This document shows positions 2,675 through 19,026 of a DNA stretch of 26,332 nucleotides, piece after piece; position 1 is the first letter of the stretch; each line of letters opens with the position of its first letter. Origin of the DNA: Smithella sp. (GTDB lineage: Bacteria > Desulfobacterota > Syntrophia > Syntrophales > Smithellaceae); NCBI GenBank assembly GCA_039679455.1, contig JBDKUX010000135.1, positions 1 to 26,332 on the forward strand, in the 5' to 3' direction. A program made the position numbers and the translations under genes. Below the pieces are notes generated by a model. That model had not been told where the DNA came from. It searched no databases and was given only the letters and a program-made list of their open reading frames with translations.

Positions 2675-3292
2675 TTAAAAAGGCAAATCATCGTGGTTCA
2701 GGATGCGAATTCCCCGTTCTTTCATGATCTGAACGGTGTCAGCGATATTTCCTGCCGGCACATCAACGCCCCGACAGGCATCCAGAATAACACTGACATT
2801 AAATCCCATATTCTTTGCATCCACGGCGCTGTAATAGACACAATAATCAGTGGCGAGACCGCAAAAAAATAAATCCTGAACGGCGAACCCTTGCAGGTAT
2901 GAGTGCAGACCGGTGAAGGTCTTCTTGTCGTTTTCCATAAAAGTTGAATAGGAATCGATATTTATATGACCGCCTTTGCGGATGATCAGATCGACGGGGC
3001 GCAAGTCCAGATCTTTGTGAAAATCAGCGCCAAAGGAGCCTTGGACGCAATGAACAGGCCACATGACCTGTTGAATATCACCTATGGAGATAATGTCGTA
3101 AAGTTCTTTATTGTGGGTAGCAGCAAAAGAGACATGGCCCGTGGGATGCCAATCCTGGGTGGCGACTACTTTATCAAACTTTTGCGTAAGCGAGTTCACA
3201 ACCGGAATAATCTCGTTGCCTCCCGCCACAGCCAGCGCGCCGCCGGGACAGAAATCATTTTGTATATCCGTAATGATCAGGCAATTTTTCAT
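2675..3292 (-). CDS. pncA: Nicotinamidase/pyrazinamidase (isochorismatase-like hydrolase family)
   Basis: MKNCLIITDIQNDFCPGGALAV... with the catalytic-Cys context ...FFCGLATDYCV, typical of PncA/isochorismatase folds. The likely start is the ATG at 3292 (MKNCLI), 1 nt after the pyrG stop (TGAaATG). The ORF track's extended 3319 start would overlap pyrG by 26 nt. Confidence 0.8.
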   Translation of the reverse strand: MKNCLIITDIQNDFCPGGALAVAGGNEIIPVVNSLTQKFDKVVATQDWHPTGHVSFAATHNKELYDIISIGDIQQVMWPVHCVQGSFGADFHKDLDLRPVDLIIRKGGHINIDSYSTFMENDKKTFTGLHSYLQGFAVQDLFFCGLATDYCVYYSAVDAKNMGFNVSVILDACRGVDVPAGNIADTVQIMKERGIRILNHDDLPF

Positions 3293-3293
3293 T

Positions 3294-4955
<1,662 letters not shown>

Positions 4956-9104: not shown

Positions 9105-10106
9105 TTAAAGCTTCTCGATATCCTGAAGATTTTCATATTCCATCATCGTGGACATGGCTTTATTGTCCACTTCAAAACCTGCTTCATAGGCTGCCGCGAC
9201 CGGATTGAGGCCGCCGACCAGAATCATGCCGATTTTGTTAATATCCACGTGAGTTTGACAAATGGGATGACCGATACCACCTATTGATAAAACGCCATTG
9301 ATGCCGACCTCGTTAAAATCATCTATAATATCATCAACTAATGGACGGCTCAGTGCGGGAATTTCACGGAAGTTGGCCAGAATTTTACCCTCGCCTTCTT
9401 CCACGACTTGCCTGACGGAGGTCATTTTGCCGCGGATAAAGATTTCCGACGGATCAAGGGAGGAACCGGCGTAATGGATCAACTCCACAAATCTCAGGCT
9501 TTCTCCTTTTCTCATCTGGAGAATGCCGCCGAATTTGGAATCAATGGGGATGCCGTGCCTCAGGAGAACGCCGTTTATCACAATGCTGCAGACCGTCGCC
9601 AATCCGACTTTGCCCGGCGGCACCACAAGCTCGCCCAGAGTTTTTCCGGCCTCGGCTACGGCAATGCGGGAAGATACCGCCAGCTTTTTGGAAAAAACAG
9701 GTTTCATCACTTGCAGCGCAGCGGAAAATTGATCCTCCGGAAAAAAAGAAACATTTACCGGCACGAGGCCGCGCTTCTTCTTGATGTCAAATGTTGTTTT
9801 AAAAGAAAGAATGTCTATTCGGGAAATGGAAAGCCCCATCTTGTCCTGTACACGGGCGTCGGTAATTTCACTGAGACCCTGCTCTGTGACTACACGGCCG
9901 TCACGCCTGCCCACCAGGCGGGTGAGCCCGCGTTCATCCATGATCTTAAGATGATAGCGGACAGTCCTTTCACTGAGCTGTACATCGCGCTCCGACATCT
10001 TGCGGGCGATAACGCGCGCTCCCAGCGGCCCGGGACTTTCGTGCAGAATTTTCAAGATCAGGAGAACTTTGCGCTCAATGTCCTCCGGTTTAAAAAGCTC
10101 TTTCAT
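9105..10106 (-). CDS. nrpR: NrpR-like nitrogen regulatory protein: N-terminal winged HTH plus one DUF128/NRD domain
   Basis: MKELFKPEDIERKVLLILKILHESPGPLGARVIARKMSERDVQLSERTVRYHLKIMDERGLTRLVG... matches my recollection of the NrpR wHTH, followed by ~250 aa consistent with a single NRD (DUF128) domain. The track's ORF starts at a TTG at 10151 (MPIRQ...). The ATG at 10106 with GGGAGG immediately upstream is the more likely start. Length (333 aa) fits a one-NRD NrpR form. Confidence 0.72.
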   Translation of the reverse strand: MKELFKPEDIERKVLLILKILHESPGPLGARVIARKMSERDVQLSERTVRYHLKIMDERGLTRLVGRRDGRVVTEQGLSEITDARVQDKMGLSISRIDILSFKTTFDIKKKRGLVPVNVSFFPEDQFSAALQVMKPVFSKKLAVSSRIAVAEAGKTLGELVVPPGKVGLATVCSIVINGVLLRHGIPIDSKFGGILQMRKGESLRFVELIHYAGSSLDPSEIFIRGKMTSVRQVVEEGEGKILANFREIPALSRPLVDDIIDDFNEVGINGVLSIGGIGHPICQTHVDINKIGMILVGGLNPVAAAYEAGFEVDNKAMSTMMEYENLQDIEKL

Positions 10107-10113
10107 GCGCCTC

Positions 10114-10148
10114 CCAATACGGCAATCGGCTATCATTTGCCGTATTGG
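10114..10148. promoter_or_regulatory. 12-bp perfect inverted repeat CCAATACGGCAA-N11-TTGCCGTATTGG abutting the nrpR ribosome-binding site. Candidate operator or 5'-UTR stem-loop
   Basis: Arms at 10114-10125 and 10137-10148 are exact reverse complements. On the coding (minus) strand the proximal arm is followed directly by GGGAGGcgcATG (SD plus nrpR start at 10106). Confidence 0.35.
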
Positions 10149-10155
10149 CAATACT

Positions 10156-10189
10156 TACAAATTACTTTTTTGTCAAATACAAATTTGTA
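10156..10189. promoter_or_regulatory. AT-rich palindromic elements upstream of nrpR: TACAAATT half-site (10156-10163) and 12-bp perfect palindrome TACAAATTTGTA (10178-10189), flanking a TTGACA -35-like hexamer on the minus strand
   Basis: Read directly from the sequence. TACAAATTTGTA is self-complementary. The same half-site recurs 22 bp away in direct orientation. Minus-strand TTGACA corresponds to plus 10171-10176. Confidence 0.3.
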
Positions 10190-10323
10190 ACTTTTTTAAT
10201 TTTTTAGGCTCAATTTTGTATCATTGACAGGGACGCAAACCGGCGTCGAATACGCCTTAAAAGAAAACATCTTAAATATTAACTACATATTATCAGATAC
10301 TGAGAGGATGGTTGTCTATGGTA

Positions 10324-13300: not shown

Positions 13301-14040
13301 ACATCCTGCAGTTCTGTTTCATTTTTCAGTTCAAAAACCAGCTGGATACCCGCCGAATCTCTTCCCCGGACTTCCAGACGATCCAGGGCATTTAGAAGAA
13401 GATTGAATTTTCTGTATTTTCGGAAAGCATCAGGTTGTACTAAGGCATGTTTTTCCGCATCGGACAATGCCAGCACTTTCTGTATATTGGCCAGAACATC
13501 TTTCTCCAGCATCCAGCAAACATCTTTGAGCAGAAGAATACGACTGTTGATTATCTCCAAATCGACGGAGCCAATTACAACAGCTTGATTTTCAAGCCAT
13601 TTTTCTTCATCTACCAGAAACCGCTTCATTTCACCGGCAACATTAACCAGATCCGCCGCACGTTGCGTGTGGAAAAAAAGAAATTCCTGTGCATCCTCGC
13701 GTTTAAGTTCCAAAACGGCCGCATTCATGGCTTCGACAGTATCCATGCCGTTTAAGTAACCGGTTACGGAACCTTTGGGGGCAACAGTTTGCAAGCCGTT
13801 TGCCCTGACTTTTTTCCACAATTCGTTTATTGTCAGATCAGCCGTCGTATCCGCATCTTTTTTCGCCAGACGGCAAGTCATTAAGCCTGCGAAACCGCAA
13901 TTGAGCTGCCCGGAAAGCAGCGGAAAAAAGATAATCGCCGGTCCTTGAACGTAAGCAGGATGCCGGCCGATATAAATTCGGCAACTGGAAATTAGACAAA
14001 GAAAAGTTTTTATAATATTGAATATTTTTATATAAAACAT
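10324..14040 (-). CDS. Giant GlmS-like glutamine amidotransferase: class-II (Ntn) GATase domain with large insertion, tandem SIS domains, ~400-aa C-terminal extension of unknown function
   Basis: 1238-aa ORF. A CGFAGL nucleophile motif sits at residue 48, matching the MCGIVG pattern of GlmS/PurF/AsnB. GlmS-like motifs follow: RLEVRGRDSAGIQ, HTRWASVGS, LNGDIDNY. Two SIS domains are present: VVVGHGTAAVAGQ...IPITQSGTTTDT and YWAIVGSGPNKAAADE...LILVCAAGN. There is no canonical start codon directly before Cys48, so a propeptide is implied. An AGGAT SD lies 5 nt upstream of the ATG at 14040. Confidence 0.8.
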   Translation of the reverse strand: MFYIKIFNIIKTFLCLISSCRIYIGRHPAYVQGPAIIFFPLLSGQLNCGFAGLMTCRLAKKDADTTADLTINELWKKVRANGLQTVAPKGSVTGYLNGMDTVEAMNAAVLELKREDAQEFLFFHTQRAADLVNVAGEMKRFLVDEEKWLENQAVVIGSVDLEIINSRILLLKDVCWMLEKDVLANIQKVLALSDAEKHALVQPDAFRKYRKFNLLLNALDRLEVRGRDSAGIQLVFELKNETELQDVVLLIRENGLTEEYQQRTKKSDLLNRSIFISNDQTGCSGGISVAFTYKTFSIVGELGRNVAELRKFIQSDRILQCFCASEAACETALTHTRWASVGSITEENCHPVNNYTTVPSTPVYPFYPGAQAQINAVLNGDIDNYPALRQDLEAGGDLIAQQVTTDTKIIPLQIEKYLKAGQNLAEAFRLAVNDFEGSHAIAMTSALEPGKMFLALKGSGQSIYVGLNADQYMFSSELYGLVEVMPRFIKMNGEAGSGGVAGQIFVLDQNCNSGLAGLSVCCYDGKMIELTENNLQTAEITTRDIDRGGYPHFFLKEISESALSIKRTLRGKYRITGFNNSSAHVDFNMGTDIVPDAVRKALVNGMLKNIVVVGHGTAAVAGQVVADALSYYLQSRHLNILARVASELSGFGLNAEGPDTLVIPITQSGTTTDTNRAVAMARERGAHIISIVNRRQSDITAISHGVFYTSDGRDIEMSVASTKAFYAQIVAGQVLALFFAQLLGTRSNDDIARQLLRLESVPGLMDQLFARRDDIAASVKKAADKRYWAIVGSGPNKAAADEVRIKLSELCYKTISSDIVENKKHIDLSSEPLILVCAAGNPATVVEDVVKDVAIFKAHKASVIVFADEGENRFHQIADAVIPIPVAPAPLPVILNTMAGHLWGYFAARAIDEEAQIFREFRGRLAVELAQRMQRKLSVFDMIADASFHRIINDFYLQFNNRRLNGAFGLMEAKTIADLPLLLKYVVGKLPLHDIRQEFKIKGDFISPFDLLDVTLGTAIDELTRPIDAIRHQAKTVTVGTSRKEKKLEGIIYNLLESLNFSVKNLTYRNIMTIKRIQPAIATVRGYTAYDVSGLDEQGNPMENSTIAIKAKGGVAMYMQSRADQPATLMGTKKMIVSSGHAYVGRGKSDGVPLVIIPLLGENNIVINLLLIHILYNEALPLREKIKVLGYRYQDIRNLINEYNLPWNDECLESISLEVLFSEQVEVIAERIKARLNQ

Positions 14041-14208
14041 TATTCATCCTATGCCACAGGATTTTGTTTTTTAAAGGTACGCCTGCGGTGATTTTTTAAT
14101 GCTATTTACTGTCTGTTGGAAAAGAATACAAGATATGCAATTACTGTGCGCTGCCGTGTATTCGACAACAATTTAAATATTGTCAGATATAAATAATTTT
14201 GGTTGTGT

Positions 14209-16838: not shown

Positions 16839-16935
16839 TGATATGGCAATAATATTTTACAGTTCAGATCAAACAGATTCTTCCGGGAGCAAAAACTCCA
16901 TTCCGAAGAAGACTACTTGGAGGAAGAGAAAAATT

Positions 16936-18033
16936 ATGGAAATCAAAATTAAAAAAGCGTCGCCCACGAAAAGGAAAGTTAAACCAACTGATGAATCAAA
17001 GCTTGGCTTTGGCAAGATATTTACCGACCATTTTTTCAACATTAAATATAAGACAGGAAAAGGCTGGTATGATCCGATTATTGAACCTTACCGTCCCCTG
17101 CAATTAGAGCCGACGGCCATGTGTCTGCATTACGCCCAGGAAATTTTTGAAGGACTGAAAGCATACCGCGGTCAGGATGGATCAATTTATCTTTTCCGTC
17201 CCATCGAAAACATTAAAAGAATGAGCGTTTCCGCGGAAAAATTGTGCATGCCGCCCATGGATGAAGAAATCTTTTACGATGCCATCAAAAAACTGGTTAT
17301 TTTGGAAAAGGACTGGATACCCCGCGGTGAAGGCACATCCCTTTATATCCGCCCCACAATGATCGCTACGGAGGCCGCTTTGGGCGTTCATCCAGCCAAT
17401 GAATTTCTCTTTTTTATTGTGGTGGGACCGGTGGGAGCCTATTATCCGCAGGGATTTTCCCCGACCAAGATGTATGTATCCGAAGAATATGTCCGGGCAA
17501 CCAAGGGTGGGACAGGCAACATTAAAGCGGCAATTAATTATGCAGCAAGTCTCTATGCCAGTCAACTTGCCACAAAAATGGGTTATACCCAGGTCTTATG
17601 GCTGGATGCCGTCGAAAAGAAGTATGTGGAAGAAGTGGGCACCAGCAACATTTTCTTCGTTATCGGCGATGAATTAATCACTCCGCCTCTGGCCGGCACC
17701 ATCCTGCCGGGAGTCACTCGTAATTCGGTCATCAAACTGGCGGACTTCCTGGGAACAAAAGTCGTCGAAAGACCGATTACTATTCAGGAAGTCATTTCAT
17801 CATCCGAAAATGGAACACTCCGGGAAGCTTTCGCCTCAGGGACCGCCGCGGTCATTTCTCCGGTCGGACAACTTTATTTCCGCGGCAAAGAATATTTAAT
17901 CAACGGCGGTAAATCCGGTCCATTAGCCGAAAAATTGTATACCGAAATTTTGCAAATCCAGTATGGCCGGAAAGAAGATCCCTTTGGCTGGCGCGTCAAA
18001 ATTTTGGACGGGAAAAAAGTTAAAAAGGGGTGA
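16936..18033 (+). CDS. ilvE: Branched-chain amino acid aminotransferase (long, class IV; YwaA/IlvK/eukaryotic-BCAT type)
   Basis: MEIKIKKASPTKRKVKPTDESKLGFGKIFTDHFFNIKYKTGKGWYDPIIEPYRPLQLEPTAMCLHYAQEIFEGLKAYR... aligns with the ~363-aa BCAT family. PLP-Lys region ...TKGGTGNIKAAINYAAS. The track ORF begins at 16843 (MAIIF...) without an RBS. The MEIKIK ATG at 16936 has a GGAGGAAGAGA purine-rich SD. Confidence 0.88.
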   Translation: MEIKIKKASPTKRKVKPTDESKLGFGKIFTDHFFNIKYKTGKGWYDPIIEPYRPLQLEPTAMCLHYAQEIFEGLKAYRGQDGSIYLFRPIENIKRMSVSAEKLCMPPMDEEIFYDAIKKLVILEKDWIPRGEGTSLYIRPTMIATEAALGVHPANEFLFFIVVGPVGAYYPQGFSPTKMYVSEEYVRATKGGTGNIKAAINYAASLYASQLATKMGYTQVLWLDAVEKKYVEEVGTSNIFFVIGDELITPPLAGTILPGVTRNSVIKLADFLGTKVVERPITIQEVISSSENGTLREAFASGTAAVISPVGQLYFRGKEYLINGGKSGPLAEKLYTEILQIQYGRKEDPFGWRVKILDGKKVKKG

Positions 18034-18084
18034 ATTGAGTTTTTTTCCCTTGTATACAAGCACTTGGATTTGTATTCCACAACA

Positions 18085-18120
18085 TTGTGGAAAAACTTGT
18101 GGATAACCTTGTGGATAATA
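18085..18120 (+). promoter_or_regulatory. Array of three same-orientation DnaA-box-like 9-mers (TGTGGAAAA, TGTGGATAA, TGTGGATAA) at ~11-12-bp phasing
   Basis: TGTGGATAA is the reverse complement of the consensus DnaA box TTATCCACA. Perfect copies lie at 18098-18106 and 18110-18118, with a 1-mismatch copy at 18087-18095. A weaker opposite-orientation TATTCCACA lies at 18073-18081. An AT-rich tract follows at 18175-18230. Confidence 0.4.
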
Positions 18121-18327
18121 TTCGCAAGTATGCAATTGTTAGTAGATTACACCAAATTGCATAAAATTTGAGCAACGATATTTATTTAATATTATCAATT
18201 ACATATAAATATATTCTTTATTCATGGCCACTTAGGGCAATATCGGTCAAAGGATATAAACTATATTAAAAAAGAAATATTTCTCGGGGATGTTTTCCCG
18301 GTTTTTTTCATAAGGAAAAGCAATAAA

Positions 18328-19026
18328 ATGTTTTTAAAAAGAAATAAACAGCTTATTATCACTGTGGCAGCCATTTGGTTGTTCTGTACTTTATTCATTT
18401 TTTTGGCGCCGAAAACCGCCATAACTTTGACGACTGCGCCGATAAGTGAGGTGGTCGCCCGGCTGCAGCAGAAGTACGAAAAAACCCGGGACTTCAAAGC
18501 CGGTTTCATTCAACAAACGACAATAAAATCCATAAAGAAAACAGATACAGAAGAAGGAACGGTCTTCTTTAAAAGCCCCCAGAACATGCTTTGGAACTAT
18601 TCCCGTCCCAAAGCTAAAAAACTGGTAATCAATTCCCGCAAAGCCTGGCTTTACCTTCCCCAGGAAAAAGTCGCCTATGTCCAGGAAGCCGATAACATTC
18701 TTAAATCGAGAACCTTAATTAAGTTTTTATCCGGCTTGGGTAAATTAGAAAATGATTTCACTATTCAATATGCCGCACCCCAGGCTCTGGACAAACAAGG
18801 CAATTATTTACTTTACTTAATCCCACGGGAGAAAGCGCCCACTTTACAGCCTTTTCAGGTAACGGTTGATAAGAACACTTATCTGATTTTACAGGTCAGC
18901 TTTGCCGACGCCTTGGGCAATACTACATTGCTGAAATTTTCCAATATTTCCACCAATATTGGCATTGCTGAAAAGATGTTCCAGTTCCAGCCGCCCAAAG
19001 GAGTCTCCATTTTTAATATGCCTTAA
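18328..19026 (+). CDS. lolA: Outer-membrane lipoprotein carrier protein LolA-like (periplasmic chaperone)
   Basis: N-terminal signal peptide (KQLIITVAAIWLFCTLFIFLAP), ~230 aa. Text typical of the LolA family: ...FKAGFIQQTTIKSIKK...TVFFKSPQNMLWNY... Strong AT-rich leader with AAGGAAAAG before the ATG. Confidence 0.8.
   Translation: MFLKRNKQLIITVAAIWLFCTLFIFLAPKTAITLTTAPISEVVARLQQKYEKTRDFKAGFIQQTTIKSIKKTDTEEGTVFFKSPQNMLWNYSRPKAKKLVINSRKAWLYLPQEKVAYVQEADNILKSRTLIKFLSGLGKLENDFTIQYAAPQALDKQGNYLLYLIPREKAPTLQPFQVTVDKNTYLILQVSFADALGNTTLLKFSNISTNIGIAEKMFQFQPPKGVSIFNMP

Follow-up and report, generated by a model that had tools for sequence, protein, structure and literature searches.

A conserved array of putative DnaA boxes in the ilvE-lolA spacer of Smithella and related bacteria

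The intergenic spacer described here lies in a contig of 26,332 nucleotides from Smithella sp., which was analysed as a whole and is called the window in the following. The first part of the window is occupied by minus-strand genes, namely, in this order, a sensor kinase gene, pncA, pyrG, glmM, an acetyltransferase gene, gdhA and a gene for an NrpR-type regulator, followed by genes for a GlmS-like protein of 1238 residues, a small Fis-family protein and a hypothetical protein. After this block, yifB and ilvE, then the spacer, then lolA and a gene for a hypothetical protein lie on the plus strand. A radical-SAM gene, another hypothetical gene, proA, nadD and a gene for an SPFH-domain protein follow thereafter. 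The stop codon of ilvE occupies positions 18031-18033 and lolA starts at 18328, which leaves 294 bp between the two genes. In agreement with the earlier note on this DNA, the gene annotation contains neither dnaA nor dnaN in the 26-kb window, and tRNA genes and known RNA families are absent from it as well. The longest frame of ilvE (396 aa) runs some 36 codons 5' of the point at which the family model and the relatives start to align, and the true start is probably near 16950. Farther upstream, the minus strand at 9105-10151 encodes a bacterial homologue of NrpR, the nitrogen repressor of archaea, with a winged helix and a match to Pfam NRD1_2 (E = 1e-81), which is flanked by gdhA and the GlmS-like gene (1238 aa, GATase-SIS), and this group looks like a nitrogen-control cluster. 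The features of the spacer and its two neighbouring genes are the following:

16843-18033, plus strand: ilvE, a branched-chain amino acid aminotransferase gene, the upstream neighbour (NCBIfam PRK13357, E = 4e-143)
18049-18060, no strand: palindrome CTTGTATACAAG, from the sequence and anchored alignments
18073-18081, plus strand: box a, TATTCCACA, opposed to boxes b-d and separated from b by 4 bp
18086-18094, minus strand: box b, TTTTCCACA (TGTGGAAAA on the plus strand), an exact match to TT[A/T]TNCACA
18098-18106, minus strand: box c, a perfect TTATCCACA, also an exact match to TT[A/T]TNCACA
18110-18118, minus strand: box d, a perfect TTATCCACA, likewise an exact match to TT[A/T]TNCACA
18129-18137 and 18155-18163, no strand: inverted repeat TATGCAATT-N17-AATTGCATA, from an inverted-repeat scan and alignments
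18147-18160, plus strand: the near-invariant 14-mer TTACACCAAATTGC, used as alignment anchor
18161-18215, plus strand: AT tract (87% AT, by composition), 45-100 bp downstream of the boxes
18193-18205, plus strand: IHF-consensus site TATCAATTACATA with 1 mismatch, by consensus match
18253-18261, plus strand: conserved motif GATATAAAC (-10-like TATAAA) in the 3' half of the spacer, which is otherwise less conserved
18284-18308, plus strand: hairpin and T-run, just 5' of the ribosome-binding site of lolA and about 20 nt from the start of this gene
18328-19026, plus strand: lolA, the downstream gene, for a periplasmic lipoprotein chaperone (NCBIfam TIGR00547, E = 6e-37, above the cutoff)

The four 9-mers lie within 46 bp, with gaps in the order a-4-b-3-c-3-d, and the array as a whole sits 210-255 bp 5' of the lolA start codon. 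Boxes b, c and d follow each other at exactly 12 bp and are returned by Tandem Repeats Finder as a repeat of period 12 with 3.2 copies. Box a deviates at two positions from TTATCCACA and at one from TTWTNCACA, the DnaA consensus as quoted in PMC8682772 (there TT[A/T]TNCACA), and together with box b it forms an 8-bp inverted repeat, TTCCACAA / TTGTGGAA, with 2 nt in between. There are no further boxes with up to two mismatches in the 294-bp spacer, and c and d are the only perfect boxes in the 26 kb. Over the whole window, 15 boxes with at most one mismatch were counted where 5.6 were expected, and TTWTNCACA matches nine times instead of the expected 2.6, three of these nine matches being in the spacer. 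A same-strand triple at 10-12 bp spacing occurred in none of 1000 Markov simulations. The earlier note had thus described the arrangement well: its two perfect boxes and one box with a single mismatch in the same orientation are present, the spacing being exactly 12 bp where 11-12 bp had been given, and its weaker inverted box upstream is box a at 18073-18081. The 9-bp inverted repeat with N17 at 18129-18163 is present as described, the downstream AT-rich tract of about 55 bp and more than 80% AT corresponds to the 87% AT over 18161-18215, and the palindrome exists and is perfect, but it begins one base farther left than had been noted, at 18049-18060 instead of 18050-18061. Elsewhere in the window, two opposed TTTTCCACA sites at 13668-13676 (minus strand) and 13812-13820 (plus strand), 144 bp apart from start to start, fall into the 5' part of the GlmS-like gene, and three more matches of the TTTTCCACA type are scattered over the window.

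For a comparison, species-representative genomes were scanned for LolA, which gave seven loci, five of them labelled Smithellaceae or Smithella and two from unclassified deltaproteobacterial MAGs, and the order yifB-ilvE-spacer-lolA is kept in all seven. A metagenome scan with a LolA alignment contributed 51 more loci, so that 58 were available in total; each reaches at most 10 kb to either side of lolA, and no dnaA is found in any of them. Lone perfect TTATCCACA boxes exist in some of these relatives at positions 4577 of locus L005, 5708 of L006, 5727 of L036, 5876 of L045 and 2226 of L033 (minus strand), those of L005 and L006 being inside a 173-aa hypothetical gene 5' of yifB. Other clusters of the motif were not found in 570 kb of related loci.

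About 45 related loci have preserved the 294-bp spacer over its whole length, with its spacing unchanged. The 14-mer TTACACCAAATTGC is present 5' of lolA with at most two mismatches in 46 of the 58 loci, and the 12 others include six contigs that are too short, two with a diverged 14-mer and two unrelated contexts. Anchoring the sequences at the 14-mer gives an alignment that is gap-free for about 200 bp and has few gaps across the full spacer. The neighbouring spacers, including the one with the proA promoter, keep promoter-sized blocks of about 40 bp only, which is far shorter than the ilvE-lolA block. In 37 unique related sequences the box array is free of insertions and deletions, and the 9-mers are kept, whereas the intervening stretches of 2-4 bp are free to vary; this is the footprint-like pattern expected of protein contacts. 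The opposed a/b pair, TTCCACA-N4-TGTGGAA, is the most constant part of the array: box a is identical in 35 of the 37 sequences, and the distance of 4 bp between a and b is shared by the window, all 37 sequences and the diverged loci L052 and L054. Changes that do occur in the pair are never compensatory, as for example in L005, where TAGTCCACA goes with TGTTGAAAT. Boxes c and d most often read TTATCAACA (26/37 and 23/37, respectively), and the perfect TTATCCACA at both places is particular to the clade of the window. The sixth position of these two boxes can thus be C or A and the fifth is near-invariant; in the DnaA consensus it is the other way round, with a free fifth position. Throughout the family, each of the four sites differs from a DnaA box by no more than one or two bases.

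Boxes c and d change together between clades, the clade of the window having TGTGGATAA twice and most relatives having TGTTGATAA twice, with mixed states in L055 and L052, and this joint change suggests either a concerted evolution of the tandem repeat or a protein that is indifferent to G or T at this position. The spacer of L055 (Ga0182022_1158802) appears twice in inverted orientation, at about 770-1180 and 3050-3480 and with differences in homopolymer lengths, and the second copy is most likely an artefact of a palindromic long read that was assembled as an inverted duplicate.

Among the loci in which ilvE is still found 5' of lolA, L052 and L054 are the two that have diverged most. They retain the arrangement a-4-b-3-c-3-d and an equivalent of box a, and their boxes have other recognised DnaA-box spellings, namely TTGTCCACA, TTACCCACA and the perfect TTATCCACA. 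As these loci keep the boxes while the 14-mer is lost or diverged, the oldest layer of the spacer is the box array rather than the sequence around it.

The other elements of the spacer are conserved to very different degrees. The palindrome is perfect only in the clade of the window, with the family consensus being CTTGTATACAGG, from which variants exist, and in the inverted repeat at 18129-18163 the right arm is conserved, in contrast to the left arm, which drifts and shows no compensating changes. In its composition the AT tract does not stand out, since comparable tracts occur elsewhere in the window, at 13990-14044 (89%) and 10152-10206 (85.5%). It contains a weak sigma-70-like pair, TTGAGC (18168-18173) and TATTAT (18190-18195) with a spacer of 16, which in a sigma-70 scan scores no better than its own shuffles, and the plus-strand scan of L033 and L005 gave no match; many relatives have TATAAT at the place of TATTAT, but with a 15-bp spacer. 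Overlapping with this best -10-like hexamer is the IHF-type site, which is found as the consensus WATCAANNNNTTR at a fixed position, 45 bp from the anchor, in 24 of the 37 unique relatives, with ATCAA and TTR being conserved and the four middle bases variable. Within 18216-18263, in the 3' half, two more conserved blocks with the family consensus sequences ATATAGCCTTTTATCATCGTCACTTAT and AGATATAAACTT are separated by about 20 variable bases. A sigma-54 promoter at the 14-mer was considered and discarded, as judged by eye the -24 element lacks GG and the spacing is off.

What kind of element could this be? The earlier note had left the choice between a non-canonically located origin, a regulatory or titration site for DnaA, and a control of lolA by DnaA. 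The regulatory and titration readings, with DnaA as the putative binder, agree with the box geometry that is conserved throughout the family, whereas the origin reading is disfavoured by the GC skew, the side of the AT tract and the number of boxes. The explanation that we regard as the best, and to which we would give about an even chance, is that of a non-origin DnaA-box array that constitutes the upstream half of a control region of about 290 bp, conserved in the family, in front of lolA, with DnaA as the presumed binder. We prefer this explanation because the boxes are near-canonical, because the deep branches have the spellings described above, and because gaps and box order are similar to those of the E. 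coli locus DARS1. The identity of the binding protein, the place of the promoter and the direction of the regulation are inferred here, whereas the existence of the boxes, their statistical significance, conservation and fixed geometry, and the lack of a skew switch and of RNA covariation, are shown by the analysis.

Mechanistically, the four boxes would load a short DnaA oligomer, with the molecules on a and b in a face-to-face position and a head-to-tail extension over c and d. The AT tract would then be no unwinding element, but would represent the lolA promoter together with a region of DNA bending, with the TATAAT/TATTAT hexamer and the IHF-type consensus as the respective candidate elements. 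As the occupancy by DnaA would follow the readiness of the cell to initiate replication, it could tune the transcription of lolA, which is an envelope-biogenesis gene, and the same complex might in addition sequester some of the DnaA. The exact matches of b, c and d to TT[A/T]TNCACA, the phasing, the gap-free conservation and the DARS1-like order all count in favour of a DnaA array. Against it counts that the TTATCAACA at c and d in most relatives breaks the C at position 6 of the stringent consensus. Moreover, a fully conserved spacer of 290 bp is more than a simple DnaA-repressed promoter would need, and the promoter assignment is weak, as the scan in the window is at chance level.

DnaA-box clusters outside of origins are a known kind of element, of which the ilvE-lolA array is a new example. 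It is similar to DnaA-regulated promoters such as that of nrdAB in E. coli in having a few consensus or near-consensus boxes 5' of a gene, outside the origin, that are conserved among relatives, and it differs from them by its position in an unusually long and fully conserved spacer. The E. coli dnaA and mioC promoters and the DnaA-box clusters of Bacillus subtilis are further examples of such sites, the B. subtilis clusters containing more boxes than the array described here, and to our knowledge it is otherwise mainly in B. subtilis that non-origin DnaA-binding loci have been worked out. Our searches of the literature returned nothing that connects lolA with DnaA or a DnaA box, and nothing on this element in Syntrophales; for the replication origin and dnaA of Syntrophus aciditrophicus, too, they gave unrelated papers only. 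Being deeply conserved among uncultured syntrophic bacteria, the array is a target for asking whether DnaA couples the replication status to the trafficking of outer-membrane lipoproteins.

A serious alternative, albeit one that we regard as unlikely, is that the array serves as operator for a factor other than DnaA. In such a constellation, TTCCACA-N4-TGTGGAA would be bound by a dimer and the 12-bp repeats TGTKGATAA either by this protein or by a second one, with lolA under their joint control, and the likeness to DnaA boxes would be a coincidence. The family consensus of boxes c and d is indeed TTATCAACA and no canonical box, and as position 6 is broken in most sequences and position 5 is near-invariant, another protein that recognizes WTC[C/A]ACA would fit equally well. 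Furthermore, the a/b pair, with its invariant sequence, has the form of a classic palindrome for a dimer, and invariant motifs without any likeness to DnaA boxes adjoin, such as TTACACCAAATTGC. A coincidence, however, would have to account for the fact that none of the four sites departs by more than one or two mismatches from the DnaA box anywhere in the family, and that the deepest branches revert to canonical spellings, up to the perfect TTATCCACA. The gaps of 3 bp between boxes of the same direction and of 4-5 bp between opposed boxes also match the core of DARS1, which is a known DnaA-binding site. There is, in addition, no candidate regulator gene adjacent to the array, and the site is no parS.

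Operators of several known regulators were compared with the array. The operator consensus sequences of Rex and of CRP/FNR-type regulators have their half-sites in the order opposite to that of the array, and these candidates were discarded. NrpR was considered because its homologue is encoded nearby, and the NrpR operator (GGAA-N6-TTCC) was discarded as well, due to the mismatch in half-site order and spacing.

It could also be that the adjacency to lolA is incidental and that the locus acts on DnaA itself, as a functional counterpart of DARS, or of datA, in Syntrophales, which we consider improbable. According to such a mechanism, DnaA molecules on the opposed boxes a and b would interact via their AAA+ domains, c and d would stabilize the oligomer, and a bend at the IHF-type site would modulate the complex, resulting either in an altered nucleotide state of DnaA or in titration. 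The roles of the boxes in the E. coli DARS1 core are described in PMC6868365, where boxes I and II form the essential part of DARS. Reading the core from NC_000913.3 gives TTATCCACT-5-TGTGGATAA-3-TGTGTATTA, and the counterpart in the window is TATTCCACA-4-TGTGGAAAA-3-TGTGGATAA-3-TGTGGATAA. In both cases, a plus-strand box (I or a) is opposed to a minus-strand box (II or b) in the same order, and box III follows II in the same direction at a 3-bp gap, as c and d follow b at 3-bp gaps, so that order and orientation agree up to a fourth, flanking box comparable to III'. The part that is most conserved here, the opposed pair a/b, corresponds to the essential boxes I and II, and both in E. coli and in the window the elements are located in an intergenic spacer away from oriC. 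DARS2, the core of which is activated through IHF and Fis sites, requires IHF, and an IHF consensus with a variable middle is conserved at a fixed distance in most relatives, i.e. the 24 of 37 mentioned above; datA, too, combines a DnaA-box cluster with an IHF site outside of oriC. That the conserved block by far exceeds that of the proA promoter spacer nearby also speaks for a role like that of DARS or datA.

The agreement with DARS1 is nevertheless incomplete. The a-b gap has 4 bp and not 5 bp, the strongest boxes of the window are the distal ones (c and d) and not the central one, and beyond the boxes there is no sequence homology between the loci, which belong to different phylum-level lineages. 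The IHF-type site moreover overlaps the best -10-like hexamer, and the copy in the window carries a mismatch. Finally, a DARS-like locus has a low prior probability outside enterobacteria, as in the literature that we surveyed a DARS function and the conservation of DARS2 are documented for E. coli and closely related gammaproteobacteria only. If the comparison with DARS should hold, non-origin loci for DnaA cycling would exist far outside enterobacteria, and the array of about 50 bp offers a concrete target for the question whether initiator recycling of the DARS type has a greater age and a wider distribution than currently assumed.

The lowest probability belongs to an origin and to a structured RNA. 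It is very improbable that the spacer is an oriC of Smithellaceae that is located away from dnaA and uses the AT tract as unwinding element, although a cluster of DnaA boxes beside a tract with 87% AT, a possible IHF site and a long spacer that is conserved in the family speak for it, and although origins away from dnaA do exist, for example in E. coli. An origin is expected to give opposite signs of skew on its two flanks, and the strand-corrected GC skew has no such sign switch at the site. When four-fold degenerate sites were used, which separates the effect of the coding strand from the positional skew, the strand-corrected skew of the window was -0.039 +/- 0.033 for the left flank and -0.049 +/- 0.038 for the right flank. 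Across 13 related loci, subtracting left from right gave a pooled difference of 0.007 +/- 0.016, and the two sides were correlated with r = 0.58, several lineages having a clearly non-zero skew of the same sign on both flanks; because only 10 kb on each side are covered and the loci are related, this is moderate evidence and no proof. The cumulative GC skew of the window steadily declines through the site.

The surroundings of the site are no more origin-like. The two nearest genes on its left side, yifB and ilvE, have their transcription directed at the site, dnaA, dnaN and parS are all missing nearby, and four boxes in the spacer are a low count for an origin. As to parS, the search gave no match at the site and one chance-level match with three mismatches elsewhere in the window. 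By convention, sequence records begin at dnaA, and origin modules close to the record start in related genomes are therefore presumably located beside dnaA. A published module table based on DoriC lists such modules within 2 kb of the record start for three related deltaproteobacteria, namely at 1598-1630 in Syntrophus aciditrophicus, 1822-1855 in Desulfobacca acetoxidans and 1504-1546 in Geobacter sulfurreducens.

The position of the AT tract also does not fit. It is on the 3' side of TGTGGATAA, whereas unwinding elements and DnaA-trios lie on the 5' side: in the box-trio module, at least three NAN trios within 16 bp are located 5' of TGTGGATAA and lead into the AT-rich unwinding element (PMC8287927). 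In the window, the 5' side of TGTGGATAA is taken up by box a and the end of ilvE. With the box-trio pattern as in PMC8287927, neither the window nor its closest relatives gave a match, while the E. coli control was recovered; matches in other relatives are an artefact, as box c was read as trios. The array thus shares with the box-trio origin (Pelliciari et al. 2021, PMC8287927) the tandem boxes of the same direction with 3-bp gaps near AT-rich DNA, but it differs in having no trios 5' of TGTGGATAA, the AT tract on the opposite side, no skew switch and no dnaA nearby. The non-canonical origin that had been proposed in the earlier note is for these reasons disfavoured, by the missing local skew switch, the wrong side of the AT tract, the presence of only four boxes and the location of the modules in related genomes. 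As a general caution, an origin should not be called from phased consensus DnaA boxes next to AT-rich DNA alone.

That the spacer encodes a small RNA or a structured leader of lolA, with the boxes being part of the RNA, would explain the long conservation of the primary sequence, the hairpin and T-run just before lolA and the a/b inverted repeat as a possible second hairpin, but it is hardly credible in view of the absence of an Rfam match even at E values up to 10, RNAalifold covariation terms of just -0.55 and -0.25 kcal/mol for the two strands of 18040-18270, a 3' half of the spacer in which RNAalifold gave no consensus structure, a/b stem changes that do not compensate each other, and a hairpin before lolA that is weak or absent in most clades. 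This hairpin at 18284-18308, which has an A-run upstream, is strong in the clade of the window only. Within that clade, its stem has compensatory changes (CGGGGA/TTCCCG versus CGGAAA/TTTCCG), and together with the T-run it looks like a terminator or attenuator.
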